A stretch of 63,832 bases of DNA, the filler included, from Kipferlia bialata (lineage: Eukaryota): assembly GCA_003568945.1 (NCBI GenBank). It is 7 parts of 7 records of this genome, joined end to end, with 100 filler letters (N's around TTAATTAATTAA, not from the genome) between each part and the next. Parts side by side here need not be neighbours in the genome. Positions count along the whole stretch, not along the records: positions 11,131 to 22,152 come from BDIP01001310.1; 6 more parts are not named here. One strand, written 5' to 3'. Of the stretch, positions 8,189-63,810 are shown in pieces. The notes below the pieces were generated by a model, which did no database searches, was not told the DNA's origin, and saw only the letters and a program-made list of their open reading frames with translations. Each line of letters starts with the position of its first letter. Position 1 is the first letter of the stretch. The position numbers and the translations under genes were made by a program.

Positions 8189-10605
8189 ATCATGGCCGCG
8201 GCAATGCCAGCCATATCGAATGTGAACTCGGATGCCTGGCTACAACTGCCACCCCGGCCACCCCTCTCTCTCCTCTCTCTCCCTCTCCCTCTCCTACCCC
8301 TCCTAGTAGGTTTGGGCCTGGGTACAGGGGACGTCCCCGGGGGCAGGGGGGGGATGGTGTCCCTCGGGAAGTTCTGGGGAGGCAGGGGGGTAGTGGGGCT
8401 GGCGCAGCGAACGTGCTCGCTCCTGGTGCTCCCTACACTCCTCACACTGCTGGTGCTGTCGGCACTCGCACTACCCCCTGCAGAGAGTACAGCACTGAAG
8501 GCACTGGTGGCGCTGGAGGAGGAGGATGAGCTGCACACACTGCTGGTGGGGGAGTGGGGTCTAGTCACACCGGGGGAGGGGACTATGCCTAGAGGGTGAG
8601 ACACAGTAGAGAGACAGTATATATATATATACGATATAGGCACTCTACCCACCTGGGAGTCTCTTGCTGGGCCTGACACACAGGACAGAGTGGTCAGTCA
8701 GGAGGGCCTGGTCCCTGCCATACTCAGGTCTGGGGGTGAGGACAAAGATAGATTGAATGATAGTGTTTGGGACAGTATATACAAGGCCCTCCAAACCTGA
8801 AGTCCTGCACCCACTGTGCGATGTCCCCCCAGGCAGCCCTGAGCAGCTTGCAGAATGCCATTGGCGCCTGCTTCTTCTTCCTCTGCTTCTTGGATGTGGA
8901 GACACCCCTCATCTGCCGGGTGATCTCGTCGATGGAGAACCACTGCACCTGGGGGGGTTAGATGGAGGCGCGGCACGTCGGTCACTAACATATAGTGTAG
9001 AGTAGCATGTACCTCATCTATCTCGTGCCGCACCGTGGGGCATGTCGGGGTGGATGTGGGCATGCCGGGTGCGATGAAGAGGGCTGTCCTCTCCCCTGCC
9101 ACCTCCACCACAAAGGGTGCGTCTAGCTCAGTGCGGTCAGAGGCAGGGGTCACCTTGGGGGGGAGGGCATAGCCCTAAGATCAGGGGGGAATGGGTAGGT
9201 GTATATATACTTAGATACCCCCACCTGCTGCCCCTTGGTCCCAGCCTTTGCCAGTGGCTGCCACCCATATGCCCTGTATATGGCCCTGTCCTGCAGAGGG
9301 TTCAGCAGGGACGGCAGCACATTCAGGCCAGTCTCCTCGGCTGCCTCCCTCACTGCTGCGTCCTGGGGTTACATGGGCTGGGGTATATGTAGTGTATAGG
9401 ATATATGTATATATATATATATATACCTGCAGGTCCTCTCCCTGCTCCACCTTGCCCTTGGGCACAGTCCACCCGCTGGCCTTCTTGTGCGATATGCCTG
9501 GCAATGAGAGAGAGAGAGAGAGAGAAAGATCTACCTATACATGTATAACACTAACCTCTGATCAGCAGGATGTGCCTCATCGATGGGTCCAGTATCAGTA
9601 TCTATCTATATATATATGTGTATATATATATATCTATACATATATATATATGCACACTATTGACCAATACCTCTGATCAGCAGTATGTGCCGCATCGATG
9701 GGTCCAGTATCAGTATCTATCTANNNNNNNNNNNNNNNNNNNNNNNNNNNNNNNNNNNNNNNNNNNNNNNNNNNNNNNNNNNNNNNNNNNNNNNNNNNNN
9801 NNNATGTATAATACTAACCTCTGATCAGCAGTATGTGCCGCATCGATGGGTCCAGTATGACCACCCCTGCCTTCTGGCCCCGGCTCTGCCTGTTCTTGAA
9901 GGTGCTCCACATCTTGACTGGGTTCTCACCCCTGGCTGGTCAGTATATATGTATATAATATATATAATATAACCATGACACAATGAAGTGTATTCAGTGT
10001 CGGAAGGAAACTGATGAGCTGAACTGTAGGAAACTGATATCACTGAACAGGCCTACCTAAAGAATGGTTTCATGGCCGGAAGGGATGTGAAGTGGGCCAT
10101 AAATGTGGCGGCCTGCTCCTTACTCCTGGCCAGACATGACGGGTCCTGGGTCAGAGACAGGGTATGGGGTATCTGCAATAATATACACGACCAATCAAGA
10201 CATGTCTCCATGAGGGGCAGTGTGAAGCCGCGAGAGACTAGACACAAACAAACAGATACAGTGTACACACTATCCATATACTGGTGGGTATATGTGCCCG
10301 AGAGATGGCCTCCCCACCTGTCCCTCCTCGTGATAGAAGTCAATGAAGGACCAGAACGCATTCTGGAGCTGGGTACACAGCTCAGACCGGTATGCGTCTC
10401 CCTCCAGATCCTCAAAGTCATAGCTCAGTATGTGTGTCCTGGGGGTGGGGGGTAGGGGGGGCAGGGCAACGTAGAAGGGGTCATCAGTTGTCAGGCCTAA
10501 AAATACGAACTCACTGAAATCGAACCCATCCCAAGCATACAACCACCCAATAACGTACACTGCCAAATGCCGTAATGTTTCCTCCGTGTCTTCTGTATAC
10601 TGCAT
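8185..10605 (-). CDS. DCP2: mRNA-decapping enzyme Dcp2-like Nudix hydrolase, about 10 exons
   Basis: Box A-like ELCTQLQNAFWSFIDFY, Nudix box WTVPKGKVEQGEDLQ|DAAVREAAEETGL, RHEIDE|VQWF, and a Ser/Pro-rich tail. Confidence 0.8.
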
Positions 10606-13529: not shown

Positions 13530-16500
13530 CTACAGCTGCTGGGATGACCCCATCTCCACCCTCTTCTCCTTCTCCCTCCTCTCCCTCATCATCAATAGGG
13601 CAATGTCCTTGAAGCGCTGCACATACACGGCACGCATCTCCTCCTGGGGGTCAGTATATATATATATATATATATCCATATCTATCTAGCATCTCCTCCT
13701 GGGGGTCAGTGTATCCATATCATTCTACCATTTTCATATATTTATATATATATATATATACATATATGAACATCACTGTTAATAACCATATATCAAGGTA
13801 TGTACAATCATGGGACGCATCTCCTCCTGGGGGGTCAGGGCATGTACATACACATAGAGTAATTACTCCACTCTAAATATGTATCCATAAATGTATCTAT
13901 ACTCAAATCCTACACACCTGGCTCTGCTTGAGTGCCTGTATGGACTGCTGTACTAGGATTCTTGTATATACTATGCATATACTGTACCTGCTCTCTCTGT
14001 ATCAATCCATGTATGTATCTATATCCCATGTACCTGGCTCTGCTTAAGTGCCTGTATGGATTGCTCCTCTATCAATCTCTCTTTCTCTCTATACATACAT
14101 ATATACATATATGTGTACGTGTGTCTATATCATCTATACCTGGCTCTGCTTGAGTGCCTGTATGGACTGCTGTATATAGTTGTATATAGGCACTCTCTCT
14201 ATCCATATCTATCTATCCATATGTATACACACCAGTACCTGGCTCTGCTTGAGTGCCTGTATGGACTGCTGTGTCTTGACAGACAGGGCAGACAGGGACT
14301 GGGTCGAAGAGGCAATGTGGGCTGGGGGTTAGGATACATATAGGGAAGAGAGTCAGAGAGAGAGTGTGTGTGAGAGAGATTATGTGGTCTGGGATAGTGT
14401 GTAGCAATAATAGAGAGCGATGAGAGGGGAGAAAGTACCCCTACCTGCCAGGGCACCGCTGAGTGCCTGAGTCTTCCTCAAGATTTCTCTCTATTCACCA
14501 ACATATATACATAGAGTATATACCTACATACACATCTACATATACCTGAGAGTGCATCGCTGAGTGCCTGTGTCCTCTGCAGGATATATATATAATACTT
14601 TGCTCTCTCTCTCTCTATATATATATATATAGTATGTAACTATATACATATACACATCTATATACCTGTCAGTGCATCGCTGAGTGCCTGTGTCCTCTGC
14701 AGGGTGCCTGTCTGCTGTCTGTCTCTCTCCCCCTCCACAGACTCAGTCAGCGTGGCAGTCAGGGACTGCACCTCGGACAGGGCCCTGCGGTCAACGATTA
14801 GTATACGAGAATAGTAATGTATACTATATGTTACTGATAATCTTCATATATATAGAAGAGGGATGGTAAGAGACTGTACCTCGGACAGGGCCCTGCGGGT
14901 GAGGGGGGCAATGTTAGTACGACTACACACAACAATACACATATACACCACTACATACCTAGCCACTTCTCCCCTGAGTCTCTCTGTCTCCTGGGTCATA
15001 TACTATACACTACACACATACACTCTCTAGACACAACCACACACATATATATATATATACATATATATATACCACTCTTCTTTGTTTCATACCTAGCCAC
15101 TTCTCCCCTGAGTCTCTCTGTCTCCTGTGCCATTGTCTGTGTGGCAGACTCAACCTCGGCAGACACACGGGTGGAGTGGTCGGACAGGGCCTGGGTTGGA
15201 TATATATTAATCATATATATAGACACATACATATATACATATTAATACATCCATCACGGGTGGANNNNNNNNNNNNNNNNNNNACATATATACATATTAA
15301 TACATCCATCACGGGTGGAGTGGTCGGACAGGGCCTGGTGTTATATGCATAGATATAGATAGAGAGAGTATATATATATACACACATATATATACATGCA
15401 TATATATATATCCATCGCGGGTGGAGTGGTCGGAGAGGGCGTGGTGTTATATGCATAGATATAGATAGAGAGCGCACATATATATATATATACATATGTC
15501 TATCATGTATGGGGTGGTCGGACAGGGCATGGGGGTAGAGATATATAGATAGAGAGAGTATATATATAATTATATACATATTAATACATCTATCACGGGT
15601 GGAGTGGTCGGACAGGGCCTGGGTTAGATATATACATAGATAGAGAGAGTATATATATATTAATATACATATTGACACATCTATCATGGATGAATTGGTC
15701 GGACAGGGTATGGGGGTCAATGATCTAAACATGTCTAGTGATTATACACCCAGGTGAAGCGGTCACTCCTACCTTGACCGTGTCGTTGACAGTGCATATA
15801 CATAAACACACACATATATCTATATGCTCTCTCTGTCTCTCTCTGTCTCTCTATATATATATCTATCTATACATACATCTCATACCTTGACTGTGTCGTT
15901 GACTGTGTCTGTGCATGTCTGGGTGAGGGTAATGCACTCCTGCACCTGGGGGGTCAAAACAATATATATACCATATATACATAACAATTAAATTTATACA
16001 TATATGAATATACCAACATATATACATATATACACATATATTCAATGGGTCAGGGTGATGCACTCCTGCACCTGGGGGTGGAGGGAGTATAGGTATATGG
16101 AGACAACTGTATTCAGACACCCATATTACATATGTGGGTCAGTTGAACACAGTGTATCATTAGATGCATGAATAACACCACCCACCCTAGCACTAGATGC
16201 ATCAGTTGATGCAGTGGATGTCTCTCTCTCCATCCTGGCCTCTCTCTCTCTCTCCCTCTCAGCAAGGGCAGCTACATGGGCATCAAAGGTGGCCTGGGGT
16301 GAGATGGAGAAAACTACACAAAAAATAAAGATATATGCAAGATATATAGTAAATATACACACACCTTGACCCCATCCACTCTGACACTGACACTGTCCAC
16401 CCTTTCCATGATGGATGTATACATATCCATATGTATATATACCATATACAGTGTATATACACTATCCATACCTTCACCCCGTCTACTCTGACACTCACAC

Positions 16501-17521
16501 TGTCTACCCTCTCCATGATGGACGAGACGAGGAGCATGCGCTTGGAGTCCTGGGCTGGAGGTGATAGAGGTACATATAGTTATATGTATAGATACAAGTA
16601 TACTGGAATGTACGAATACACTAGGAGTATACGCTTGGAGTCCTGGGCTGGGGGTGAGAGAGGTACACATACACACATGTATGTATATAATAACACTACA
16701 ACCACCCACATGCGCCGCACTCTCTGACCCCTTCTAGCAGCTGCTATATTACATATATATGTGTGTGATGTATATATATACATCTATATATCTTATACCT
16801 GCGCCGCACTCCCTGACCCCCTCTAGCAGCTGCTGCTGCACGTCTCCCAGTGTGTCAGAGACAGATGTGATCAGGGTGTGGACCCCAGCCACCTCGGCAG
16901 CCACTCTCTCTCTCTCTGCAGCAAGGAGAGATGCACAGTGTGCCCTGGTCTCTGCGTCCATCCTCTCTCTCTCTCTCTCCCCCTCTGTCTCTGCCACCTC
17001 CACCCTGTCACTAATGGATGATACACTGGCCAGACAGGCTGAGACAGAGGTGGAGAGGTCATGCACGGTGGTGGTGGTCTGAGGGTGAGAACAGACATGC
17101 AATTATCAGTGCATGTACATATATAAACCACAGATAGAAAAGAGAGTGGACATGTCATGGAGGGTGGTCTGGGGTGGACACCATATCAGGATAGAGAATA
17201 GTCACATCCATCGTACCTCGTCCTGCACCCCCCTCAGTAGGGTGTGTCCCTGCTTGACCCCCTCTATGTCAGATGCCATGTCCTTGATGGACAGTGATAG
17301 AGAGGCATGGGTCTCTGTCACACGGGTGTCAACGGTAGCGATGGAGGCAGAGGTCTGGGGTCAGGGTATGGATACATGTATAGAGAGAGAGACACAGAGG
17401 GAGATAGGCATAGGAATGTATGGGTGGCACATGCAGTGATGGAGGTCTGAAGTAAGGTATGTATATATACATATATGTATACATTACCTTCTGCTCCACC
17501 CCCTGCACCGCCTGGGCCACC

Positions 17522-17552
<31 letters not shown>

Positions 17553-20500
17553 CATATATACGTATATATATATATACATCTCACCTTCTGCTCCACCCCT
17601 TCCACAGCCCGTGCCACCCTCTCAGCCATCTGTGTCTCCAGAGTGGATAGGGCACTGGCATTGCCTGCCACGCCCTTCCTCACCCCCTCCACCCCCTTCT
17701 CAACCTCTACCATCACACTCTGCTGCACCCTCTCCATGGCACTGGTGGTACTGGTCCTGTCGGCCTCTCTCTCTCTCTCCCTGGTCTGGCCCTCGGCAGC
17801 AACCTGGTATGAGGTATATATACAAATGCATTAGTACACATATGCTGAGTATTTGTATCTCGCTCACCTTGTCGTTGAGTGCCTTGACCTCTGTGTCCAC
17901 CTTGTCTGACAGGGTAGACACAGAGGCAGAGAGAGAGGAAGTGGCAGCGGCAAGGGCTGTCTCAGAGTCACGCCTGGGGTGGGGGGAGAGGCAGAGAGAC
18001 AGAGAGAGCCGTGGAAGGTGTCCGTGCATCTCTATATATGTCAATGCTAATACATCTACATATACATCTTTCTGTGAATAAACACACTCTACTACACTAC
18101 CTACATATCCCTACCTGACCCCCTTGACCCCCTCCTCCACCATGAGGCACTAACACATATATATAGATATACTCTCTAGCACACTACCTATCTATGCATC
18201 TATCTAGTAATCTATGTCTATATACATGTACATACCTCACCCCCTTGACCCCCTCCTCCACCATCAGGCACAGTCTGGTGTCAAGGGCACCGGCCCTCTC
18301 GTTGATGACCTAGGGGTTAGACACTCATTCAAAAGGATACAATAACATACACTACAATATTAACCTTCGTGACTGCCCCCGCTAGATATAGTACACAAGG
18401 TATACCATCTTTTCCAGACACAGAATAGGTACCCACCATACCACTACCACCCATACCTTAGTGAGTGCCCCCTCCACCCCCTCGATGCCCCTCTGTGTCT
18501 CCTCCCTGGCTGTGCTGAGTACAGCAGCTGTGCATGCATCACAGTGGGCAGTGGCATCAACAAGGATGGAGTCAAGAACAGTTCTAAGAGTGAGGTTATA
18601 TATGTATATATAGTACAATGACTAGTGGCATCTGTCAGGAAGGAGTCAAGGGCAGTCCTGATATGAGGATATATATGTCGTTGCAATGTGCTCCCACCTA
18701 GGCACCATCTTTGCCCTCTCCCTCACTCCGTATGCCTCTAGTCTCGCTATGTTGGCTGTGTTACGGGCAGAGGACTCACGGGCAGTGTCCCTGGAGGTGA
18801 GAAGGACACTAGTTACCAAATAATAACCATTGACTATATACATATATATGTATACAAATACACACATACCTATCCTTGGCCATCATGTCGTTGAGTGATG
18901 CCATGCTCTCGGCCCATATATATATATGTACATGTGTGTGTCTCTCTCTCTCTATATATATATATCTGTATATCCATCTATATCTCCACACCTATCCTTG
19001 GCCATCATGTCGTTGAGTGATGCCATGCTCTCAGCCCATATCTCCTGTCCCTCTCTGTGGTTGTCCCCAATCACAGCTACAGACTCAGCCATAGTGGCAA
19101 TCTGGCCCTGGAGATTAGTGTGTATTACACTAGTATATTGGTATCAGTATGAATAGTATATAGTATACAATCATCCATATATTACAGCCACAGACTCAGC
19201 CATGGAGGCAAGCTGGCCCTGGGGGTTAGTATTATATATATAGAACACTGAAACTAGTATAATAGGTAAGGTAAGCTAATATATATACAAACAGTACAAT
19301 ACTACACACACACACATATAACTATTCATATATAGCCACACATACATATCATAGACTCAGCCATGGAGGCTAGCTGGCCCTGGGGGTAAGGGACACTCAT
19401 AGCTTTTAATAACATGAATGTCTCCAAGTATATCCCTATACCTTCATCTTCTGGTAGTGCTTGTCGTGTATCCTCTGGGACTCCCTGGCTATGCCCTCAA
19501 TGTGGGCAGACAGCTCCTCTGGGGTGAGGAAGGGGAAGTGATATATAGCAATAGCAGATACATCAGTATTGTACATATATACATATACATATATGTAAAT
19601 CGATGTAAATGGAAACGCCCTCAATGTGGGCAGACAGCTCCTCTGGGGGTGAGAAGTAATTGCCTCTTACAAATATCTATATATATGTACTCACCCTCCC
19701 TGTCGCACCAGTCCTGGGCCATCTCCCTAGTATATATAGTATTCTCTCTCTCCCTCTCTCTCTATATATATACAAACTATCTATCAATATGTACTCACCC
19801 TCCCTGTCGAACCAGTCCTGGGCCATCTCCCTAGTATATATAGTATTCTCTCTCTCTCTCTCTCTATATACATATACAAATATACCCAATATACATACCC
19901 TCTCTGTCGCACCAGTCCTGTGCCATCTCCCTTGTACACATATACACATATACTATACAGTACGATATATATACATGTATATCAATATCCATTGTATACA
20001 TACTATACAGTATACCCAATATACATACCCTCTCTGTCGCACCAGTCCTGTGCCATCTCCCTCGTTGCCTGCTGCCACTCCTCAATGTCCACCAGACGCC
20101 GGGCCTCGTCAGCGGCACGCCTCTCCTGTGCCTCCTGGGCCTCTGTCTGCCTAGTCTTGTCCAGGGCAGAGAACTGGGGGGATGAGAGGGAATTATATAC
20201 CTGTACATACATATATAGAACATATACATAAGGTATATGGTATATACTAATATACACACTGTTACATCTGTCTAGCAGTGTCCAGGGCAGAGAACTGGGG
20301 GGGTTAGTATGGGTATGAATGTATAGACACAAATATAAGTACAAGGGACAAGGCACTCACCCTGTCCTCCATGCCAGACACTATACTATATATTTACACA
20401 CTACTATATATACCACTACATATATCACAATATATATTACTATATACATCCACTCACCCTGTCCTCCATTCCAGACACTATGGCGTCTGTCCTCTCCCTC

Positions 20501-22100
20501 TCTGCCTCTATGGCACTGTCTGCTGTCTGTCTCTCAGTCACTAGCAGGGCATGTACCTCGTCCCTCTCTCTCTCGCGGCACTGGACCTACAGTCAGGTAC
20601 GAGTGTATAGGGAATATAAATATGGATAATGCCATTACGTATTAGTCTCTCTCCCTCTCGCAGGGGTTTGCGGTGTGGTATGGATACATACTTCGTGTCC
20701 CTATCTGATATCTATCAGACACATCTATATACCTCCGCTGTCAACTGCCTGCTGTACATCTGCCAGTGTTGTATGAGATATATACATATATACAAATATA
20801 CATGCATCAATATACTCCGCTGTGACTGCCTGCTGTGTCTGGGTCAGGGTCTATCCACATATACTACATGTCCGTATATGAATATGCTATGTACATGACT
20901 ATATACACACCTCCGCTGTCACTGCCTGCAGTATCTGGGTCAGGGTCTGGTCCAGGGCAGAGTGGGCATCGGTGCTGTCGGCCTGGGGGGTTAGTATATG
21001 TATGAACATCTTCATATGTACAAGTACAAATCAGTTCATTCATACAAAGCAACAAATACATATATGTACATCTATATACCTTCATGACAGCCAGTGTGCT
21101 AGCCAGTGCCTGTGAGTCTGCCTCATCCAGATGTATATATATATACTTACACACACATATATATATATACATACTATTACACATATATGTATAGTACCTT
21201 CATCACACTGAGTGTACTAGCCAGTGCCTGTGCATCTGCCTCATCCAAACATCTATGCATATATATATATATATTCACATGCATATATAATATATATCAA
21301 TTTAGTATATAGAGTGTAATATAGTAGTACCTTCATCACACTGAGTGTGCTTGCCAGTGCCTGTGCGTCTGCCTCATGTCTCTGGGACAGGGAGTGCTCC
21401 AGGGCAGACAGGGCAGTGGCTGAGGTGAGAGGGTATATACACCTATAGAGGGAGAGAGAGAGGGAGTGCTCGAGGGCAGACAGAGCAGTGGCTACAGGGT
21501 GAGGAGAGTGGCATATACTATGTATAGAATTGAGGGAGTACATACACATACACCCACCTGCCCCCTCCTTGACCCCCTCCACCCTACTGTCCATCTCTGT
21601 GAGTCTGGTCTGCAGGGTGTGGTTAGACACCTCGGCCTGCCTCTCTCTCTCGGCACGCCTCTCACCCGCTGCATGCTCAAGCCTAGTGGGTTAGTATACA
21701 CACACACAAAAGCATAGATATCCACATATATGACAGAGTGTCACTGTCTCTCCCCTTCAGCATACACTCTCTCTCCCTACCTCCCTGCCACCTCTGAGCA
21801 GCATGTCTCCCACTGTGCCTTGCTCTCCCTGCCGAGTCTCTCTCTCTCTCTCTCTCCCTCCTGCCTCACTCCCTCAATAGCTGTGTCCAGCCTCTCTCTC
21901 TCCTTCTCAGCATAGGCCAGGCTCTGCCTCTCCCTCTCCTCGCCCCTCTCCTGCTCCCTGGGGGTGAGACTATATATATCTATCTACATACATACACACA
22001 TGAATCTCTAGCGATGTCCCAAAACCTATCAATGTCCCTCTATCTATACGCTACCCCACACCTAGCCAGAGTGCCTTTGAGTGCGTTGTGCTTGTCATAT
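13530..22100 (-). CDS. Long multi-exon coiled-coil protein (5' incomplete), stop TAG at 13530-13532
   Basis: More than 25 short exons with consensus splice sites encode heptad-rich A/E/S/R helices (for example SIMERVDSVSVRVDGVK and ASALSTLETQMAERVAR). No family recognised. Confidence 0.75.
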
Positions 22101-22312: not shown

Positions 22313-23960
22313 CCATCTCCATCTGCCTCATCATCATCTGCCTGGGCATGTGTGATCTGTGGGAGGAGGAGCACTCAGAGAGCGGGGAGTACAACGGGTG
22401 GTACTACACATGTACGGTACACTATGCATGCTACACACACATATATACTCTCTCTCTGTCTCTCTTGACCCCCCCCCCCTCACCCCAGGCCTGGTCTTCT
22501 GCTACGTGGGCGTTGTCTCCCACACCGCCCTCTCCTTCATGATCATCATGGAGTGGCTGTCCCCCAATGTGCTCGGGGCACAGTTCGTGAACCCAACCAA
22601 CCTGGTAAGGATATATATCAGTCTACCAAGCCTCTCTGTCTCTCTCTCTCCCCCTCACCCTTCAGATCCCCCCCGTGGCCAACATCATCATGGGTCTGTC
22701 TCTGGCCAAGACAGAGCAGACAGAGCTCGGGTGGTTCTTCTGGGCATCAGGTATATATACCCAATATCCATAGTAATACATTCTCAATGATTTCCCAACC
22801 CCTCACCCCAGGCGTCATCATGTACCTAGGCATCTTCGCCATGTCCCTCACCCTGATGGTCACCGGCAAGTCCATGCCCCCCAAGCTCAGGACAACCATA
22901 TTCATCTGGGTGGGTGATTGTATGTGGATACCACTTCCTACTCTCTCTCTCTCTCATTGTCTTCTTCAATCACACCTCTCCCTCACCCCAGGCTGCCCCC
23001 GGGGCCCTTGCCTTCATCGCATACTCCGCCCTCACAGGGGGGACATGGGACGTCATGGCTAGGTATGCATATATACACATGTATGTGTGTTCATACAATG
23101 AATGTCCCCCCTCTATCTCCCCCCCGCCCCCTCTCACCCCCAGGCTGTTCTGCTACTCCGGCCTCTACTTCTGGTTCTTTGCCATGGTATTCTTCTTCGT
23201 CAGGATCGCACCCTGGATGCTGTACGTGCTGGTGTCTCTCTCTCTTACACACACACCCACACACACCCACTCTCTCTCTCTCTCTCTTTCTCTCTCTCCT
23301 TTAGTAGTGTTCACCCCCACTCCCCCTCATGTCCAGTAAGAAGTTCGAGGTGACCTGGTGGGCCATCACATTCCCCTCTGCCTCCACCGCCGTGTCTACA
23401 TTCGACCTGGCCAAGAAGATGGAGGTATGAATGTGTAGATATATTCATACTGTATACAACTCTAAGGAGATGGGGAGGTGGGGACACAGTGGGGTATGTA
23501 CACTCACTACCAAGCGGCCATATGTGTAGTATATCTCATTGACCCCCTCCCCCTCTCACCCCCCAGAAGGAGTACGGCGCTGGCAACAACACCATATTCA
23601 AGTGGATATCTTGGTTCGTGGCCGCCACTGACTTTGTGTTTGTGGCCCTATGCCTAGTGGCATCTGTCGTCCAGGTATAGTTGTATTAGTATTCTCACTT
23701 TCAGTCTCGTGTACAGTGGTCTGAGTCTCACCCCCTAGGGCTTCCGTGGCAACCTCTTTGTGGCCGAGGGAGAGGGCCCCAAGCCAAAGCAGATGCTCAA
23801 GGTAGGGTGGCAAGGGTGTCATAGGGTATTGGAGAGAGTGTTGTCACATAGTCTATGTGAAGTGAATAGATACTACCCCCCCCCCCCCTATCCCCTCCTC
23901 ACCCAGGCTGTCTCTGAGGTACCCCCCTCTGAGGAGGGTGCAGCTGAGGCCAAGGTGTAA
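22313..23960 (+). CDS. TehA/SLAC1 (TDT family) anion channel / dicarboxylate transporter, 5' incomplete
   Basis: Spliced motifs VNPTNL|IPPVANII, MPPKLRTTIFIW|AAPGALAFIAY and KKFEVTWWAITFP, plus multiple TM helices. Confidence 0.85.
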
Positions 23961-24154
23961 GGAGAGAGAGAGAGAGAGAGAGAGAGAGGCCGTAGCCTCA
24001 TTCTTTATAACGCGTATTAGTAGTGTGTGTTAGTTTTCGGTCGTTTGTTAACGGCCAGTGTATTATTTCGTTTGTTGATGTAATGTCGCATCATCAGTGT
24101 TGAAGTGAATAGATTGACAGACCCAAGTATTAATATCATGACTGACTAATGCTT

Positions 24155-26123: not shown

Positions 26124-29100
26124 ATGGGGTATAACCTGCTGCTTGCTCTACTCTTCCTGCTCTCCCTGTCCAGTGGGGTGGCCTCCCTCTCTCTGTTTGG
26201 GCCTGATGACGACTCTGGCCCACACGACTCATACGGCAATGGTGAGTGCCCCTCCCCCTTTCCTATAGTGCCCAGATAGTTATGAATGGGTGGTTGTGAT
26301 GTCAGTTACATGTCTATTGTCATTTAGCTGACATATGGCGGGATACTATACCAGATATAGAGATCGTGTATTGCCCCATTCACTTCCACACCGCCATATG
26401 CTCAGTCAAGTTGATACCTGACTCTTTGCTATGTTTTAACCGCAGGCTCCTCCCCTGGGGTGTTTACCACTGGCATACTGGTAACAGAGGCCCAGGTCCG
26501 TTGTGGTCTACACGCATTCACCATCACTCTCCACACCGATTTCACCCCATATTGGCCCAACTCCCCACAAGCACTGGCATACTGGTAACTGAGGTCCAGG
26601 TGAGATGCCGTTGTGGTCTACACGCATTGTGACTATCCTTTCCACACCGATTTCACCCCATATTGGCCCAACTCTACACTAACACTCCATTGGCATATAT
26701 CCAAGAGCATGCCTGCTATTCTCTGACCCCCAGGCTAGTGATGGATACCCTGACTCCATGGTGGTGGATGGACCCATCGCACTGGCAGGTGGGAATATGA
26801 GTATATATATATACAGAGAGAGGGGGGGGGGGATGGAGTGACTAGCCGATTTATGATCACTTATAGGAATACATTCGTAAGTGGAAGATGAGACAGGTGA
26901 AATATTACTTTCCCCCAATGTCAGGTGTTCCCCCTCCCTCTAACCCCTAGGCAACTGGGCGGTGGTATCGGCACAAGGTAGGGTTATCACTGTGCAGTAT
27001 GTCCGCCTCCTTTGCAACTCGGCCCGTTCCTTGTTTTGTTCTGTTCTGTCTCATCCTGTGCTACTCATTCCTCCCCTGTATATAGATGTATGATTCATGT
27101 ACATATTTACAAACATATTACTATATATACATGTACTCCCCCCAGTCAACTCTGGCGACGCCCACTGTTCACAAACTAGCGTATACACACTACACTACTA
27201 ATGTACTTATAGTATAGGCTCTACACGTTCTATAATTATGTCTTTCCTTAGCCTATCCCTTCTGTACGAGACCCTCTGTCATATGGACAGTATACACGCT
27301 ATACTTCTAATATACATACACACTTCTCAACACCCACCCCAGCCCTCCTAGACGACACCCTCTGTGATGCAGTCATTGTATACCACTACGTTGAGGAGAG
27401 AGACGAGTACTACCGTTACTACAACAAGTGGGAGGCGGCAGCAAACCTTGCTGGTACCCTTCCTGCTCTGTCTGCTGAGAGACTGGTATTGAGGTGAGAG
27501 GCACTCTCACAGCTATGTCCGCCAGTTTGAAGTTATAGAACTTGACGGCACTACGAACTATGATTTCACTGTCAATCGTTTTCTATCGCGTATACTCCCC
27601 TCACCCCAGGTCCAGCCTTGGCACTCTGTCCACGTATGACCTCAGTGGAGACAGCCCTGTCCTAGAGGCATCAACAGAGGTACTCCATTGTGATAGAGAG
27701 ACAGCACTCTTCTGAAACTACAGTGAATACATATCTTAGGTGTCGATTAGGCGGCCTAATTTAGGCCTATACAAATATAGAATACAACATCGACACTGTC
27801 GATGTAGCGTACCTTAGTATAATACTCTTGTCAAATACTCACTTCAGGTCTCTCTGGCCTCTGACTCCTCCACCGTCACTGCCCTCTCTCTCTCTGGGGA
27901 CACACTAGTGGTGGGCACCAGTGACTCTAGGGTGTTTGTGTACACACTCTCTCAGTCCCCCGACTGGCTGTGGAGCCTCACAGCTGAGCTCCTGCCTATT
28001 GTACCTGTACTAGGTGTCGGCTCAGGCTTTGGCCTAGCTCTAGACCTCCTCATCCCCTCACTGGTCTCCACAACGATGGAGAGTGACTATTACGCTAGAG
28101 TGGCCGTTAGTACCCCGACATACGCAAGCGTGGAGGGGACTGAGGTTGTTGACGGTGACAGCTACCCCTGTGTGTACATCTTTGAGACTGGCTCAGAGGG
28201 TGCAGACTGGACACAGACTGGGGTGGTGAGGGTGACTGAGGACGTCTCGCCTGACACTGACTCCCTCTCCTTAGGCCGCACTGTATCCCTGTCTGAAGGC
28301 GCAGTGGCATTCAACTATTGGCACCCTAACCTGAAGACCGCCCCTGACTATCCTGTAGTCCAGACATACTCACCGTGTGTAAGCGGCCATACTGTGTCGA
28401 GTGGAGTTGTGAGTGAATGGTGCTTGGTGGAATCCACCCCAGGCCAACACACTTCTTACGCCGTGCACAACTACTTCGGCATGTCATCTGGTGGCCTAAG
28501 TGCCTCTCTGGCGGTCTCTAGCCAGGTTGCTATACCCAGTTATGTCCCGAACTACGACTACTACCAAAACAGCTACCACCCGTCAGTCAGAATCCTCAAC
28601 AGTAGTGATTGGGAAGCGTCCACCAACGCCTCCTTTAGGGAGTTTGAAGTGCTAGTCGGAGTGACAAGTGTCGCCAATGAGTGTCGGCCAGCGTATGAGA
28701 AGTACCCACAAGGACAGGGAGAGAGGCTGATACTTCAGGTCTTACTATCTTGTATGCAACTCCCACTCTCCCTACCGCGAGATACTATGCCTCTTACCTC
28801 AGTGTGGTACGTCTGTCCTCATATACTCCAGCGAGAACGAGTACTCCTTGGCGCAAGTACACTATGGGCAGAACGTGGTCACGTACTCATACACATCAGC
28901 CAGTGACACATCATATGAGTGCCCGTCTCTTGACGTCTGTGTGGTGAACGAGGATTACTACTACTCTGTGCAGCCCTATGACGATATTGCACCCAACGAG
29001 TTTTGGTCATATGATGGGACCCACGCGTATGCGTCTCTGTATGTGGTACCAGGCTTTACATACATGATCCCTGGCGCTGGGGGCATGTCAATGCTCATCC

Positions 29101-41390: not shown

Positions 41391-43444
41391 ATGAAGTTCC
41401 TTGTGGTTGCCCTTCTGATTGCCCTTGTGGCCTGTGGTGAGGTCAAGGTGCTCACCAGCGCCACCTTCATGGACGAGAGGGCCGTGCAGCCCATGATGGT
41501 CAAGGTACAGCCGGGTCGTCCTTCTTTGTCAATGACGACATCCCATACCACCCTGTTATACCCCCTCCCCCCACTCACCCCAGTTCTACGCCCCCTGGTG
41601 CGGACACTGTAAGACCCTGGCCCCTCTCTACGAGGAGCTTGTGGACGTGATGGCTGGTGCGTGCATGTATGTATACAGCTATATGTCAGTGTGGGAGTGG
41701 TATGTGTATGTCTCTCTGACCCCCAGACAAGGACGTCCTCATCGCTGAGGTCGACTGCACTGAGGACAACGAGCTCTGCGGAGCCTTTGGCGTCCAGGTA
41801 TGTGTGGTGTTGGGCAGGAGTGTGTGTATGTATTTATTGATGTTCAGTGTGAACTCTACCCTCATATTCCAGGGCTTCCCCACCCTCATGTACTTCGAGG
41901 GCACCGCCAACATCAAGTACGAGTCCCAGCGTTCCGTTGAGGCCATGTCCGCATGGTACGACATTATTACAATCTTATATTCTCTCTCTCTTTCTCTCTC
42001 TCTCTATATATATATATATCTATCTTCCGTTGAGGCCATGTCCGCATGGTACGACACTACCTCTCCCCCTCTCTGTGTATACCCTCACCTACCCTCTAGA
42101 CTCTGAGTCGATGTCAAGATGGGCCCTGCCACCAGTCTCTCTCTCTCTCTCTGTATATACTCCTAGTATATANNNGGGCCCTGCCACCAGTCTCTCTCTC
42201 TCTCTCTGTATATACTCCTAGTATATATATATGTACCCCCTCACCCCCAGGCTCGATGTCATGATGGGCCCTGCCACCGCCGAGTCCCTCCTGTCCGATG
42301 TCCAGTCCCTGCCCAACCCCATCAACTTTGTGCTGGTCAACCCCGACGAGCACTCCAGGACCACCTTCGAGAAGGCAGCCACCAACTTCAAGGGTATGTC
42401 TGTTGGTATATATACACACACACTAGCGTGGTACTCCCCCCCCCCCATCCCCCCTTGACCCCCAGGCCAGTTCCCCATGCACGTGGTCGAGGACTCCCGT
42501 GCCGCTGCCCACTTCGGTGTTGAGGTGGGGAGTGTCTCTGTATACATGCCATTGAGCATGGTTGAATATGGGTATACATCCCCCCTCTCTACAAATACCA
42601 TTCTCGTATCACATATTCCATATATCTCACCCCCAGGCCACCACCCCCACCCTGATTGCCATCCACGAGGGAGAGCAGGACACCGTCGAGTGCGAGAACT
42701 CCCAGGAGGTACAGCCACACACACACACGCCCTCTCTATACTCTCATGTATAGATATAGTAAAAACCCTGACCCCCAGGTTGCCACCTTCATGAGGGCCA
42801 ACTCCCGCATCGTGCTGCCCCAGCTGACCCCCCAGAACTTCAGGTATCACTGGTGTATGTATATAGTGTGTACACTCATGTATGTGCCCCTCTGACCCCT
42901 AGGGAGCTGGCCACCGAGCCCGGCAAGACCCTGGCCATCTTCTTCGTCGACACCCTTGAGTCTGAGGAGGACATCCTGAGGTACATCTACACACGTATAA
43001 TATTGTTCCATACAGATCCAGTATATGTGTATATACTGTCTGACCCGCAGGTGCAGGACCCTTGCCAAGGAGGACGAGACCGAGAAGTTCAACTTCTGCT
43101 TCATGCCCGCTGACAAGTGGGGACACTTCGGTACGGGTGCCTCGACACTTTAGTGTCTTTGTATGCATACTATGGAGTCCCCCCACCCCCCCCACCCCTC
43201 CTCACCCCCAGCTGCCCAGTACGGTGCTGAGGAGTACCCCTCCATGGTTGTGCTTGACGTCATGAAGGTATCAGTATCTCTCTCACTCTCAATATATGCA
43301 TTCACACTACTTCTATACATACTGTGCGTACCCTCACCCCAGGAGCAGTTCTGGACCTGCCTTCTGGAGGATGTCCCAGCCACCGTGGCCGGCATCGCCT
43401 CTGGGGAGATCGAGGGAACAGACATCCCCAAGCGCGAGGAGTAA
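41391..43444 (+). CDS. Protein disulfide isomerase family (a-b-b' architecture, single CGHC), about 13 exons
   Basis: Signal peptide [32 protein letters not shown] and GFPTL. The protein ends KREE*. Confidence 0.92.
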
Positions 43445-44751: not shown

Positions 44752-47700
44752 GCCAAGAGACCTGCCGGTATGGACACTGCATCCATAGAGCAGTATGTAG
44801 CTAGGTATGCAGTTCTAGTATATATATGTGTATCACTTGCTCTCTTTCTGTACATGGTGTGGTAGGTATCTAATGGATATAGTATATAGCACCCCCTCCC
44901 CTCCCTCCCCTCCCCGACATAGCTTATACCAAGTATCTGTACTGAGAAGGCTGCCCTACAGGCTGCCAAGGCCTCTCTGACACGGATACTGGGCACCATC
45001 AGTGGACACATGGAGGATATACTAGCAACGGAAGGCAAGTGTATATGTTCATATATTCATATACGTCATACATGTATATACTATACCCGACGCGTGTACT
45101 AGGCACCATCAATGGACACATGGAGGATATACTGGCTATGGAAGGTAAGTATATATATATATATATATATTTATATATAAATATATACTATATGGAGACT
45201 CTTACACGGATACTGGGCACCATCAATGGACACATGGAGGATATACTAGCAACGGAAGGTTGGTGTATATGGACACACATATCTTCTTGGACTCATTGTC
45301 TATTGTATAAATGTATATGACAGAGAGAGAGAGAGAGAGAGAGAGTCTCACCCCAGGCTATGGTGTGCAGCTCATTACTGCCAATGAGGAAGATGAGTCC
45401 ACATTCGAGGTATGTATGCATATATATATATATATATGTATATATACGACAGATAGAATATTCCGAATACTCAGTATTCGGTATTCGGTATAGAGTACAT
45501 TGAGGAAGATGAGTCCACATTCGAGGTTGGTCTATATAGATATAGATATAGATATATTAACATGAATATGCAGATATACATATGGAGTATTGGTATAGAC
45601 TGTTGAGTGCCAATGAGGAAGATGAGTCCACATTCGAGGTTCCTATGCACATGCATATATATCTATAGTAACAGATTTAGTATATGTTATTCCAGTAGTT
45701 GGGGATATAGCCCAATGAGGTAGATGAGTCCACATTCGAGGTTCATATATATTTATACACCTATGGTAGTGTTCCTTATTTCAATATAACATCAATTCTA
45801 GGTATTACTTCAATGAGTTACCATTATTCATTTCAATTCTTATTAACCTCTAGGTCCAGAAAGTGGCCACATGGGGCACCTTCATCGTGGGTATGGATCA
45901 ATCTGCAAATCAATCTACGAATCAATCTAGAAATCAATCCGCAAATCAATCCGCAAATCAATCTACAGATTAATCTCTATACCTAGTCTCTTACAGATAT
46001 TGGGCCGCGTTCGTGGGTATGATGTATCATGTATGTAGGTATTGTATTAAATATATATGTACATTGAGATTGATGGAGAGTCACCATTGATGGCTGATTC
46101 AGTTCCTCATCAGTCGCCACTCACTTCCAGGTCCCAATAAGTCAAAGTTTGACATATCTGTGTCACACGCTAACGATGACGGCCTAGGGTATCTAAACGT
46201 TGAGATTGAGGGCGCTGGTACGTCCCTCTATCCGCATCTCTGCTGCATAGTACGCTCTCTCTTCAAAATATGTGGCTTCATATGCTCAATCTATATTCAT
46301 ACTATATGCCCTCATGGGGGTAGATACTACATCCCACTTCCTAACAGTTGCACGCATGTGTGCTAAGCATACTCTTATCATTACTCATGGAGGTCAACGA
46401 TGCTGCATCTCTGGTCATGTCCCTGTATATCCTAGTATATCCTTATTAATTAATTATTATTAATCCAAATCCTAGTATAAATCCTAAGCTTTGTAGATCC
46501 CAATTAATTCATTATTATTAATCCAAATATATCCTTATCCTTGTGTCATGTGTATACAATCATAGTGGTCTAATACTATATACACTCTCTAACTATAAGA
46601 TATCTTCATGGAGCTTGAGGAGGACAATGACTTCACACCCCTCGGGTACAGCAACAGTGACATTGTACAGTTCCTGATAAAGGCAGGTGTGTACTTGACT
46701 GGGTAAACCGGTATATATAGTGCTAGTATTGATATATACAATTTTCTTGCATACATATATATATTCCTGGCGTATATACTATGCGTACAGGAGTAGTGAC
46801 ATAGTACAGTTCCTGAGGAAGGCAGGTATATCTATATATACATGTAGATGTATATATATATATCTATATTTGTATATCTGTATGTATGGATACTATACAC
46901 ATACGCACTTATATGACATCGTTCAGTTCCTGGGGACGGCATGTAAGATAGGTAGTTGATATATATGTGAAGAACGCAGGCGTGTACCTCTGGGAATACA
47001 AGTGTTCATGGGTAGGGGAATACCTATATATCATACTAACCCCATGTCTCTCCCACCTCCCCCCCAACCCTACAACGAATATATATTTATATATTTATTA
47101 CATACATATACATTTGTGTGACACCAGGACTGTCCCACCTGACCCCCAACCCTGACAAGTGTGTGAATATATANNNNNNNNNNNNNNNNNNNNNNNNNNN
47201 NNNNNNNNNNNNNNNNNNNNNNNNNNNNNNNNNNNNNTATGTATATGTACATACATATACACATGTATGACACCAGGACTGTCCCACCTGACATATGTAT
47301 ACATAATTATATATATTTATATGTTGAAGGCAGGTGTGTGCATGAGAGGGATATATTTGGGGGTAAGATATATCATACTAACCCCAGGACTGTCCCACCT
47401 CCCCCCCAACACTGCCAAGTGTAAAGACAAGGATGTGCTGGCACTGGTGGAGCAGAAGGTATTTGGGGGGATACACTATGTATATTCATATATGTATACG
47501 TATTTGTGTGTGTATTATTACACTAGTATGTATATTGGTAATATTCCAAGGGTAGAGACAAGGATGTGCTGGCTCTGGTGGAGCAGAAGGTATATTGAGT
47601 ATCAATTATGTCTCAATATATTTGTGTACTAGTATTTATATCGGCAAATATTCAGAGTGCAAAGATAAGAATGTGTCGACTGGTGGAGCATAGTCTATAA

Positions 47701-48398
47701 AGAGCAAATATTGTGTCTATACATTATATACTCTTATAGTGTACAAGTATGTATATCGGTATACATTCAATGTGTAGTGGCAAATGTGGTACGACACTGG
47801 CGGCGCAAAATGTATATAGAATATTGTTATGTAGTAAACCTGTGTATATATGTATATATGAATATATATTGTTTATATACGTATGTATGTCTGACTCCTA
47901 GGCAGAGCTGGCCAAGAAGGGCGAGACCGAGGATATATAAATATATATAGTATATATAATAGCAGAGTGATAATACACGATTATACTTAATAGTAAACGG
48001 AGAATGGTATTCGTGTCTCACTCCTAGGTAGAGCTGGCCAAGAAGGGCGAGACTGAGGATATGTCCTCATTCTCCCCAGAGAGGCTGGAGATAGAGTACC
48101 GGTACCACAGATATGTCATGGCAGATGTGTTGGCAGAAGTCTTGGATAAGTTGGACACATGGTATGGATCTATTTATGTATGGAGAGTATATGTAAATTA
48201 TTCCTATACTACTACGAATTTATAATGAGTAAGAATATGGTATTTATAACTATACCGATATCGGTCCACTATATATGTTTTTCATCACATCAATCACGTG
48301 TATATCCTTACCCTAGGTCTGCACGGAATGGTGTCCACTCAGACGTGTCCACCTGGTTCAACTCAGGCAGCATACACAAGTACCTAGAACTGCAGTAG
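44752..48398 (+). CDS. Hypothetical multi-exon protein (5' incomplete), ends ...WFNSGSIHKYLELQ*
   Basis: Chain of short phase-consistent exons. One donor is GC (45035). Two internal blocks near 46130-46390 may or may not belong to this gene. Confidence 0.6.
45896..45980. repeat. 12-bp minisatellite (AATCAATCYRCA-like, about 7 units) inside an intron
   Basis: atcaatctgca aatcaatctacg aatcaatctaga aatcaatccgca aatcaatccgca aatcaatctaca. Confidence 0.85.
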
Positions 48399-48933
48399 GG
48401 ACTTGTACTACTAGACTAGTCTAGATTGGGGTCCCAAGACACTTCAAGTCAGACGTGACCCTCTGGTTCAACTTAAGGCCTCAACACAAGTTCCTGGAGC
48501 TGGAATAGACTAGATACAAGTGGTAGAGAGACAGAGAGAGAGAGAGAGATTACAAGCACCTGGAGCTGGATGGACAGATCCTAGACAAACCCCTGTACCA
48601 ATAGTTGGCGAGTATATACAGTGTATACCAGACTATAATTTCAAAATACTGGAATCGACTAGTACGAATGTATTCAGTAGCAGTGACGTTGTAACAGTCA
48701 AGATAGTCGGGAAGAGAGAATACTTGTTGCGCCCGATTCCGTACTCTTCTTTGGTTGACCTCAAGAACTAGTTAGGCTGCTAGTCCGAAGACATACATCT
48801 GAGATGTATCATCTCTATTACCGTACTTATAGCAATTATAGCAAATAATACCATAATAATAGTAATTGGGGAATACAACAGCTATCTGAATGACAATATC
48901 TGCTATATTGGTGCGTACTATACGAAGTACAGC

Positions 48934-52147: not shown

Positions 52148-53456
52148 TCAGAAGCCCAGAGTATCCTGTCCTCTCCTAGCTGTGAGAAAAGGGTGTAGAG
52201 AATGTGTGAGAGAGTACTTGCCTAGCCATGAGAGAAAGGGTGTAGAGGGAGAGAAGGACTACTTGCCTAGCTACAACTAATTAGGTGGAAAGAGAGAGAG
52301 AGAGTACTTGCCGAGGTATGAGAGAAACAGTAAAGAGTGAGAGACATAGCACTTGAATAGCCATGCAAATGGGCTGTAGAGTGTGTGAGTGAGTACTAGA
52401 AGAGAGAGAGAGAGAGAGCACTTGCCTAGCCATGCCACTGGGCTGTACCCACTCAAGGGGTGGCCGGTCTGGGGGATGGAGACGGGAGAGAGAGTGACAG
52501 GGACCTGGGTTAACAGGTAGAGAGAGAGAGAGAGTGATAGGGATCTCAGAGCCAAGAGAAGGCTGGGGGGGGCATTCAACTTGATATCAAACCTATGGTG
52601 TCTCCCATTTACACCACAACAGTTGAACGAACAATAGAGCAGTAAAGAATAGCGAGTGTCATAGTAGTCAAGAATAGTCAAGAATAGTGGATTCTTATTT
52701 AGAAGAGTCAAGCAATAGAGAGTACCCACCTCACTTCCACACCAGTCGGCATGGTTCTGGAGAACACCATCCACAACCTGATATATCAGATATATATATG
52801 GGAGAGAGAGAGAGAGAGAGAGAGAGAGCACCATCCACAACCTAACATGAGAGAGAGAGGGTGGGAGCGTGGAGCGACCATCCACCTGATATCAGATATA
52901 TAAAAATGGGAGAGAGAGGGAGAGAGAGAGAGAGAGAGAGCACCATCCACAACCTAACATGAGAGAGAGAGAGGTGGGAGGGACATCCACCTGATATGTA
53001 TATATATAGAGAGAGAAAGGGAGAGAAAGAGACAGGGGGTGATGTACACACACATATATATATACATTCACCTGCTTTGAGACCTTGTATATACTAACCC
53101 CTATCATTGCATACCATATTCATCTATCTATCTATGTATATATATAAATATCATAAATACTTACNNNNNNNNNNNNNNNNNNNNNNNNNNNNNNNNNNNN
53201 NNNNNNNNTAAATACTTACACACCTTCTGCTTTGAGACCTTGTATATACTAACCCCTATCATTGCATACCATATTTATCTATCTATCTATCTATCTAGAT
53301 ACATTATAGAATATATATACACCTTCTGCTTGGAGACCTTGTATGTCCCATTCTTGGAGCATGTGACAGCATAGACACACTGCCTACAGAAGGCACACTC
53401 GAGGCACTTGGCCTTCTCTACTGTAAGGTATACATCAATGGTGTAATACTGATTTC

Positions 53457-54317: not shown

Positions 54318-54452
54318 GTATAATAATGCTCTCTCTATCTCTCTCTCTCTGTCTCTGAAGGCTCTGTCTCTCCCTCCGCATCTGTCTTTCTCTGGCTGAA
54401 TGTGGATCCAGGTATATATGCCCCCCCCCCCCCCCCCCCCCCCTCACACTAG

Positions 54453-55436
54453 TACAGCCCTCATCGCTGCTGCCAACCCTGCCTGGGGCCGGTACAACCC
54501 CCAGAGGACAGCGGCAGAGAACATCAACCTGCCACCTGCCCTGCTGTCTAGGTATGGGTGTATACTATACATATTATGTATACATATATATACTATATGT
54601 ATATACTATTATATGTACTCTATAGGTTAGTAGTATCAACCTGCCACCTGCCCTGCTGTCTAGGTATGGTTGAATACTATACATATACTCTATGCATGTA
54701 CTATTATATATGTGCATATATATACTCTACAGGATAGTAGTATCAACCTGCCACCTGCCCTGCTGTCTAGGTATGGGAGTATACTATACATATACTATAT
54801 ACTGTATGAATATAATATTATATATGTGCAGATATATTCTCTATAGGTTAGTATCCTCAACCATGCCCTGCTGTCTAGGTAAGCATATGGGAGGCTGTCT
54901 TGTTAGGGTGATGTATTTCTAGACACAGACACACTCTCTCTATCTCTCTGTCTACCTGTATATATCTATGCATATCCCCCTCACCCCTAGGTTTGACCTC
55001 CTGTTTGTCATCAGACTCTCCCTCTCTCTCCCTCACCCTAGGTTTGACCTCCTCTTTGTCATCAGGGACATTGTGCAGTCGGCCAACGATGAGAGGTAAG
55101 TAATACATGTAATATGAATTGTGTATATATATGGGTACTATTACACATGTATACTCTATATATTATATACTGTATAGTATATATTCATTGTGCAGTCAGC
55201 CAACGATGAGAGGTACAGGTACACGATGTGCAAATACTATACTTCTATACCTTATTGTATTTCTTATATTATTAATACACTCTCATATATTAACCTAACC
55301 CCATGCTAGTCAGACACGTTGCCCATCTGCACATGCATCCCATATATATAGCACATACATACATATACATACATGGTTATGAATATATATATACCCACCC
55401 CAGGCTTGCTAGACACGTTTCCCATGTGCACATGCA

Positions 55437-60634: not shown

Positions 60635-61033
60635 AGGGAGTGTCATACAGTATGATAAACGCACACATACAGTATACATACAGTATATGTAGCATAGTCT
60701 TACCTCTATAGCACTCGAATGCCCCTATGGATGCATACNNNNNNNNNNNNNNNNNNNNNNNNNNNNNNNNNNNNNNNNNNNNTTAATTAATTAANNNNNN
60801 NNNNNNNNNNNNNNNNNNNNNNNNNNNNNNNNNNNNNNAACCGGTCCGTTGTGGAAATGCTCTTTGTAATACCCCTCAAACCCCCCCCCCCCCACACACA
60901 CACACCTATTATACCTAACCCCAGGCCACTCTGTGTCTGATGCCGTTGTGACTGTGCCATACACTATATATAATAATGACTGATATATATATATATATAT
61001 ATATAGTACGCTACATAGTATACCTAACCTTAG

Positions 61034-63810
<2,777 letters not shown>

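Follow-up and report, generated by a model that had tools for sequence, protein, structure and literature searches.

Truncated copies of exon ends in the introns of Kipferlia bialata: candidate scars of recombination between diverged alleles

We analyzed a 64-kb stretch of DNA (the window) made up of seven scaffolds of Kipferlia bialata, a fornicate protist of free-living habit, joined by N spacers, with emphasis on a 22-exon gene for a long coiled-coil protein (the host gene). The introns of this gene, and of other genes in the window, contain truncated copies of the adjoining exon ends, hereafter called exon echoes, which differ from the exons mostly at synonymous sites. The reading that we favour, with a probability of about 0.5, is that the echoes are duplications spanning the exon-intron boundary and that their differences from the exons stem from diverged alleles through recombination. 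All counts given below refer to the window and not to the whole genome.

Inventory, reality, and splicing of the exon echoes

In total, 125 exons in 17 gene pieces were curated by hand; the exons of several other genes were excluded, as was a transporter exon whose end was uncertain. The reading frames beyond the host gene are those of our own gene models, five of which are backed by Pfam (NUDIX, thioredoxin/PDI, MCM, Hsp70, and UCH), while three other curated genes gave no Pfam match. The scan was anchored at junctions, i.e. every exon junction was compared with both adjoining introns. The results showed 82 echoes belonging to 56 exon ends (families): 48 copies of donor-side ends lying downstream and 34 copies of acceptor-side ends lying upstream of the exon. 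There were no echoes of the opposite polarity in the 23,311 and 25,692 bp searched, and none in 246,335 bp of introns of other genes. The polarised copies reported by the initial annotation therefore exist, and they occur on all seven scaffolds as it had claimed, the third carrying only one. Its statement that most exons are echoed holds for the host gene (16 of 22 exons, 37 copies in total) but not overall (44 of 125 exons and 41 of 108 introns), and the one to six copies that it described proved to be multiple copies per end with a maximum of five.

The units were of stereotyped size. Their spacing had a median of 108 bp (quartiles 97–120), made up of an exon part of median 29 nt (maximum 60 nt), with one splice site each, and a spacer of median 77. 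Introns with 0, 1, 2, and 3 or more echoes had median lengths of 90, 201, 321, and 545 nt, or approximately one unit per echo, and echo units accounted for 8,451 of 20,536 intron bases (41%) in the curated genes. The TA/GA microsatellites previously noted beside the echoes were confirmed by a dinucleotide-repeat index of 0.50 at the echo ends versus a background of 0.37 (p = 5e-7). Since a head-to-tail duplication across a splice site puts the extra end in the intron, downstream of the exon for a donor and upstream for an acceptor, the polarity is a matter of geometry and survival; the alternative arrangement would place the copy inside the exon, and no special system is needed.

Window-wide, short direct repeats gave 97 matches on echoes and 23 elsewhere. 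Seven of the latter lay in 28,156 unmasked bp outside the curated genes, and by eye most of the 23 were ends of uncurated exons or echo flanks. Within the window, 10 of 94 direct self-matches were more than 5 kb apart. Templating by spliced mRNA was rejected as a source, because the echoes run into intron-type sequence (GT in 46 of 48 donor echoes) and not into the next exon, as was an introner or transposon-derived family, because dispersed copies were absent from the introns of other genes in the window.

Echo load differs strongly between genes: the PDI gene has echoes in one intron only, and a ten-exon membrane-transporter-like gene (22313–23961, + strand) has none in the nine exons scanned. 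One copy lies at a coding end instead of a splice site. The last 60 coding bases of a gene (48339–48398, +), including the stop, are repeated 110 bp downstream at 48449–48508. The two segments differ at 16 sites, which show no third-position bias (6/5/5 over the three codon positions), and they align without an indel, so that the stops coincide. Purely intronic tandem repeats unrelated to exon ends were seen at 45897–45975 and 46435–46530 (12-bp and 58-bp periods), and a poly-C run at 54421–54443, between an exon that does not look like MCM and the MCM exons, may mark a misjoin.

The echoes are real DNA, in cis at the contig level. Run X1, which consists of DNA contigs re-assembled from reads and may be the same sample as the window, contained 0.96 of the sampled window words. 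Single DNA contigs span exon plus echoes with zero or one difference (17584–18834, none; 20033–21120; 15882–16664, one), and others tile 13776–14580. The contig depth over the echoes was flat, 386–472 compared with 444 in an echo-free flank. No second haplotype at the exons was listed in the X1 contigs, from which rare variants may drop. Most contig joints were chance GA-repeat matches and were ignored, and where identical copies exceed the word length, their order is not fixed by the contigs. The initial annotation had named haplotypes stitched together at microsatellites by the assembler as the finding that would refute it, and at the contig level this was not supported. Such an artefact would fit a unit spacing near the short-read length and the presence of several N gaps in echo arrays, and X1 offers contigs only, possibly from the very sample of the window; we nevertheless consider it highly improbable, because a normal allele cannot hold a joint from intron spacer to mid-exon, the exons lack a second haplotype, and a separate assembly crosses the joints in single contigs at flat depth. 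The five internal N gaps (9724–9803, 15265–15283, 42173–42175, 47174–47237, and 53165–53208) all lie inside echo arrays, which suggests young, near-identical units beyond short-read resolution, so that the true copy numbers may be higher. The copy number of the array at 15310–15440 is uncertain, as bins 15250–15429 are without contig cover.

The host gene model encodes 876 amino acids with no internal stop, and its transcript contig extends 5' past the scaffold. The 876-residue string is contained exactly in protein P0001, source-named Kipferlia bialata, with a 100% exon match; in Pfam it gave only weak coiled-coil matches, all below cut-off. A J-domain-like gene with an HPD motif lies downstream and is a separate gene. 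To follow splicing we used run X2, which is RNA by guess only and was treated as spliced because its contig skips GT-AG introns. The 5007-nt X2 contig aligns to host-gene exons only; over 21957–16799 its length equals that of the gene model (1967/1967 nt), and its joints of 344, 308, and 240 nt all have GT-AG ends. As this contig is spliced and holds exons only, the echoes in the covered introns are absent from the main transcript. Bins over echo arrays that X2 does not cover (13707–14074 and 19595–19962) were excluded from the evidence. Thus, in the main transcript contig of the host gene, the copied sites are silent and the exon-proximal site is used.

We regard it as quite improbable that the echoes are under coding selection through minor splice forms, as alternative sites or mini-exons. 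Their splice-site dinucleotides are largely kept (46 of the 48 donor echoes have GT, and 26 of the 34 acceptor echoes have AG), the changed codons contain no stops, and an ab initio model took the echo at 21109–21080 as a mini-exon. However, each echo has one splice site only, the spliced contig skips the echoes, and its lengths exclude the mini-exon, since a 163-nt gap corresponds to two real exons within the same total. No joints to echo splice sites were listed in 13540–16235, a region read from spliced contigs in which rare isoforms are not visible. The use of echoes in splicing, one of the options raised by the initial annotation, was thus not seen, within the limits of contigs from which assembly drops rare isoforms and rare variants. 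The same annotation held that the spliceosome must ignore many near-perfect decoy sites; the main transcript contig does skip them, but such behaviour is already known from the variable number of tandem repeats (VNTR) in intron 7 of human F7 (PMC1557585, sections consulted).

That AG is less often kept than GT is a possible sign that decoy acceptors cost more. The sites used are the first donor and the last acceptor; the choice of the first donor fits the scanning described for the F7 VNTR, and passing over upstream acceptors would need exon definition or a similar rule. For exon 19107–18992, the branch and acceptor motifs of the two acceptor echoes are nearer to the commonest form of the gene than those of the acceptor used. 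In the acceptors generally (e.g. 19107, 19218, and 20982), the branch motif is mostly CTNAC, 1–8 bases before a C-rich YAG, and such intron ends resemble the fused branch/acceptor of diplomonad and parabasalid introns. At 16565, the DNA contigs have G at full depth where the window has T; the G restores a CTCAC branch motif before exon 16554, and the T is probably an assembly error. A possible GC-AG donor was seen at 45034–45041 (+), where the exon end is followed by GC and both echoes have GT, and a similar possible GC donor, in several copies, lies near 52220–52420 (52415–52424, -).

Table 1. Coordinates of the host gene, the echoes, and the codon differences discussed in the text.
Feature	Position	Strand	Remarks
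Host gene	13530..21957	-	22 exons (21957 to ~13530); long coiled-coil protein, function unknown
Acceptor echo of exon 21419-21331	21458..21491	-	34 nt, all differences synonymous
Two donor echoes of exon 21419-21331 (21198-21244; 21080-21126)	21080..21244	-	junction scan
Two donor echoes of exon 20982-20911	20733..20852	-	junction scan
Donor echo 20361-20384 and acceptor echo 20267-20294	20267..20384	-	one intron; spliced contig skips both
Three donor echoes of exon 20173-20029 and one acceptor echo of exon 19518-19442	19617..19935	-
Two acceptor echoes of exon 19107-18992	19181..19379	-	junction scan
110-bp wholly intronic unit	19156..19265	.	DNA contig joins 19265 back to 19156
Echoes 18870-18919 (donor), 18624-18657 (acceptor), 18365-18380 (donor), 18115-18150 (donor)	18115..18919	-
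Echoes 17488-17526, 16710-16745, 16620-16647, 16365-16415, 16046-16071	16046..17526	-	junction scan
Donor echo 15773-15794 and five acceptor echoes of exon 15190-15093	15310..15794	-	beside N gap
Echoes 14959-14999, 14866-14892, 14546-14583, 14445-14476	14445..14999	-	introns skipped, 308/344-nt GT-AG joints
Three donor echoes of exon 14321-14239 and two acceptor echoes of last exon	13689..14173	-
Two donor echoes, NUDIX-domain gene	9556..9710	-	one identical, one with two synonymous changes
Donor echo with intron part still alignable	26446..26690	+	clearest plain tandem duplicate of the window
Echo arrays, unnamed gene	44975..48062	+	junction scan
MCM gene echoes	54523..55337	+	one exon end copied three times on the donor side, flanks conserved; other copies of both types
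Six echoes, Hsp70 gene	60925..63308	+	junction scan
Codons CAG/CAA, CTC/CTT	echo 14034-14065	-	named earlier, confirmed
Codons ACA/ACG, ACA/ACT	echo 15773-15794	-	named earlier, confirmed
Codons ATT/ATC, CTC/CTG	echo 16046-16071	-	named earlier, confirmed
Codons GAG/GAA, AGG/AGA	echo 16710-16745	-	named earlier, confirmed
Codons CTG/CTC, GTG/GTC	echo 18115-18150	-	named earlier, confirmed
Codons GAC/GAT, GCA/GCT, AGC/AGT	echo 21198-21244	-	named earlier, confirmed

Differences between echoes and exons

All six sets of codon differences that had been named beforehand were present at their places. In the whole set of echoes, mismatches at codon positions 1, 2, and 3 numbered 43, 41, and 111 (195 in 2508 sites), in agreement with the earlier claim that most fall on third positions; the accompanying claim of conservative amino acid changes was borne out as a trend only (mean BLOSUM62 score -0.17 versus -0.48 expected, p = 0.085). 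The expectation that a dead copy should give a ratio of nonsynonymous to synonymous changes per site of 1 was wrong. The live exon goes on changing as well, though at synonymous sites alone, so that the null value for a fully constrained exon is approximately 0.5, and dead echoes simulated through the detection rule gave 0.46–0.47, with lower 95% bounds of 0.33–0.36. The observed ratio was 0.30 for all echoes and 0.25 for the nearest echoes (72/411 synonymous and 59/1323 nonsynonymous sites changed), and a maximum likelihood estimate was 0.26 (p = 3e-4 against 0.5; family bootstrap 0.17–0.40). The range of 0.25–0.29 thus lies below the simulated null. In the host gene alone the ratio was 0.13–0.14 (36 synonymous and 16 nonsynonymous changes), with p of approximately 1e-5 or lower. 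Context-dependent mutation was rejected as the source of the bias, since the ratio stayed at 0.25 when slippage (creation or loss of repeats), CpG, and homopolymer covariates were included.

Other measures of the differences were as follows. Changed sites made up 46 of 239 four-fold and 41 of 914 zero-fold sites; there were 0 stops in 63 changed codons (2.4 expected), and single-base gaps numbered two in 82 echoes. There was no A/T drift (63 changes from G/C to A/T versus 59 in the opposite direction). The synonymous and nonsynonymous rates per echo were uncorrelated (rho 0.13, p = 0.26), and the dispersion of counts was 0.9 for synonymous and 1.7 for nonsynonymous changes, which leans to a fixed, allele-like distance but overlaps the nulls. 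The synonymous divergence between echo and exon was approximately 0.17. Echoes with synonymous changes only were also found in the Hsp70, NUDIX, MCM, and USP genes, and an acceptor copy at 62769 in Hsp70 had four synonymous changes and one nonsynonymous change in 34 nt.

Within arrays, changes private to the inner copy, where the exon and the outer copy agree, should be neutral, as this is dead DNA under serial duplication; yet they affected 13 of 139 synonymous and 10 of 489 nonsynonymous sites (p from 4e-4 to 3e-3). Of the 18 multi-copy arrays, 8 were not ordered by divergence. The three donor echoes of exon 14321–14239 are identical to the exon, changed at two synonymous sites, and again identical, and in the unnamed gene the inner copy ending at 45144 differs at 8 of 56 positions and the outer copy ending at 45258 at 2 of 60.

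Approximately 70% of each unit is intron-derived, and under plain duplication the intron part should therefore stay as recognizable as the exon part. Over the first 20 intron bases, only 5 of the 53 nearest echoes scored 12 or more, where 84% would be expected to do so at 10% substitution and 50% with heavy slippage, and the observed median matches 30–40% substitution. In several echoes that match the exon without a mismatch over 24–40 nt, the intron sequence becomes a different one almost directly after the splice site. The flank scores exceeded those of unrelated introns on average (3.7 versus 0.2 on the donor side). Conserved exon ends, silent differences, and barely alignable introns together have the look of two diverged alleles.

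Origin of the echoes

It is likely that the differences between echo and exon come from a recombined diverged allele rather than from decay alone. In the mechanism that we propose, a break near an exon edge would be repaired from one end only. The broken end would pair with the conserved exon of the homologous chromosome and copy approximately 30 nt of exon and approximately 75 nt of the differing intron of the other allele; because the introns of the two alleles no longer match, the copied end would fail to re-anneal and would be joined by microhomology in the TA/GA-rich DNA. One allele's exon end would thereby become the working end and that of the other would be pushed into the intron. Self-duplication followed by an exchange of exon ends with another allele would be an equivalent route, not separable from this one. 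The only survivors would be units that keep the exon intact and carry a single splice site, since the first donor and the last acceptor are the ones chosen by the spliceosome; arrays would then be extended by identical self-copies and unequal exchange. A copied tract confined to an exon, or one long enough to enter the next exon, would re-anneal without difficulty. This would account for the shortness of the exon part and for a spacer of about one basic intron length; the same unit sizes could also result from selection against long decoys that resemble exons. The scar-joint data consist of the dinucleotide-repeat enrichment at echo ends and one joint with three shared letters. The repair background of the group fits one-ended repair between homologs: the Fornicata are described, in the sections consulted, as lacking Rad51A and non-homologous end joining and carrying two Dmc1 paralogs (PMC8516963), and Dmc1 as stabilizing joints that contain mismatches (PMC6719624, likewise in part). 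The echo units are most likely neutral scars and not a functional system.

The initial annotation had proposed that echoes come from sequence under coding selection. The ratio of 0.26 below the null agrees with this, with a diverged allele as the best source, but the excess lies mainly in the host gene. The interpretation of the annotation is partly supported. Several observations weigh against the allele reading. The genes other than the host gene gave a ratio of 0.41 (24 synonymous and 34 nonsynonymous changes; p = 0.48 against 0.5), which differs from the 0.14 of the host gene (Fisher p = 0.004), and a set of conserved genes gave 0.25 but with p = 0.09. Changes confined to the exon, at sites that its echoes all share, were not biased to synonymous sites (4/101 versus 10/379, ratio 0.67), and the inner-copy test is weakened if exon conversion refreshed the outer copies. 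The families at 26446 and at 54551 in MCM keep their intron flanks; elsewhere, the resemblance of the flanks could have been wiped out by rapid slippage, given the low complexity of the introns. A contig joint at 19156–19265 goes back 110 bases at a depth of 942 versus approximately 450, with three shared letters, from which an identical tandem copy, a self-duplicate without an exon anchor, collapsed in the window is inferred. Since this unit and the two flank-keeping families exist, self-duplication clearly happens. Furthermore, no allele, second strain, or heterozygous site was seen in the contigs and in searches for relatives; an intronless membrane protein gave no relatives in metagenome contigs (0 among 77 stretches), and a ribosomal protein query gave 80 loci at 59–73% identity, none conspecific. 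The allele source is for this reason something that we infer.

Much of the same evidence speaks for plain, self-templated tandem duplication of approximately 110 bp, by microhomology-mediated end joining or replication slippage, with copies dead from birth. The bias would then arise from purifying selection on the exon, chance, and differences between genes, and the flanks would have been erased by microsatellite turnover. This account fully explains polarity and survival, and it is in line with the 110-bp unit and its short shared motif, the preserved flanks at 26446–26690 and in MCM, the mean flank score above that of unrelated introns, and the fit of the genes besides the host gene to 0.5 (0.41–0.47). 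Nevertheless, we consider it less likely than the allele reading, as the overall ratio is smaller than the simulated null even if the exon is kept completely constant, with the host gene lower still, the inner-copy changes are biased to synonymous sites, the flanks would have to diverge several-fold faster than the adjoining piece of dead exon, and there are few comparable repeats away from exon ends. It is quite improbable that the variants came by ectopic conversion from paralogous genes or from internal repeats of the protein. The bias is strongest in a repetitive coiled-coil gene, in which 20922–20968 and 21369–21415 are 79% identical, but echoes match the adjoining exon only and never lie in other genes' introns, synonymous-only echoes are not confined to the host gene, and, as weak evidence, no longer relative of P0001 was found. 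The allele reading can be widened to the statement that the growth of introns in Kipferlia, a lineage lacking Rad51A and non-homologous end joining, is due mainly to one-ended recombination between diverged homologs, which recurrently leaves a scar of stereotyped size; each event would swap in the exon end of another allele and leave the former one in the intron. This we put forward tentatively, as rather doubtful than probable.

Relation to known systems and significance

The closest known case is the human F7 intron-7 VNTR, a 37-bp repeat with 5' pseudo-sites (Borensztajn et al. 2006, PMC1557585), and the echoes work like such a boundary-spanning tandem repeat with silent pseudo-sites. In both, as far as the sections consulted describe F7, the first tandem element spans the exon-intron boundary, the downstream donors are silent, and the most upstream one is used. 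The F7 VNTR is found at one locus, on the donor side only, and with sites identical in sequence, whereas the echoes involve 56 exon ends in 64 kb, on both sides, in a stereotyped unit of approximately 108 bp, and, unlike that minisatellite, show poorly conserved intron parts (5/53 at a score of 12 or more) and differences biased to synonymous sites. Mutually exclusive tandem exons are whole exons with both splice sites, both copies being used. The echoes resemble them as neighbouring exon-like copies that differ mainly at synonymous sites, but they are ends of 10–60 nt with one site each, skipped by the main contig. One-sided invasion, or synthesis-dependent strand annealing finished by end joining, has been described for induced breaks and gene targeting; there, as in the mechanism proposed here, one end is extended on a homologous template, no homology is used in joining the other, and the duplication carries variants of the donor. 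The difference from these cases would be that the process in Kipferlia would act as a genome-wide source of intron DNA. Hellsten et al. reportedly described intron gain by tandem genomic duplication in 2011. In such gain, as far as described in the sections consulted, a new intron arises through the duplication of an exonic AGGT segment (PMC3443670). A short intragenic duplication is tolerated there as well, with splicing removing the extra copy, whereas here the duplication takes in a splice site that was already present and adds length to its intron. We found no description of echoes in Kipferlia, or of a pervasive and size-stereotyped form, in open-licence PMC and bioRxiv, and the sections examined of the genome paper of the species do not mention them.

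In practical terms, the echoes mislead gene finders and break or collapse short-read assemblies. In the sections consulted, Kipferlia bialata is reported to have 124,912 introns and is the only intron-rich fornicate described there (PMC5874029), and a reduced spliceosome of 87/174 proteins is reported (PMC6679479, in part). If the share of 41% holds over these introns, one mutational process shapes much of the non-coding genome, and thousands of natural experiments in splice-site competition have been run in a reduced spliceosome. They would include the less familiar case in which upstream acceptors are skipped though they look equal or superior to the acceptor that is used. If the allele reading is true, pairs of echo and exon measure past allelic diversity and recombination, and they show Dmc1-only repair acting in vivo. 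In that case, approximately 40% of the intron DNA of the curated genes would preserve former alleles in the manner of a fossil record. No demonstration of sex in Kipferlia was found in the literature searched; under the allele reading, outcrossing and very high diversity (approximately 0.17 at synonymous sites) would be evidenced from a single genome without a second haplotype.

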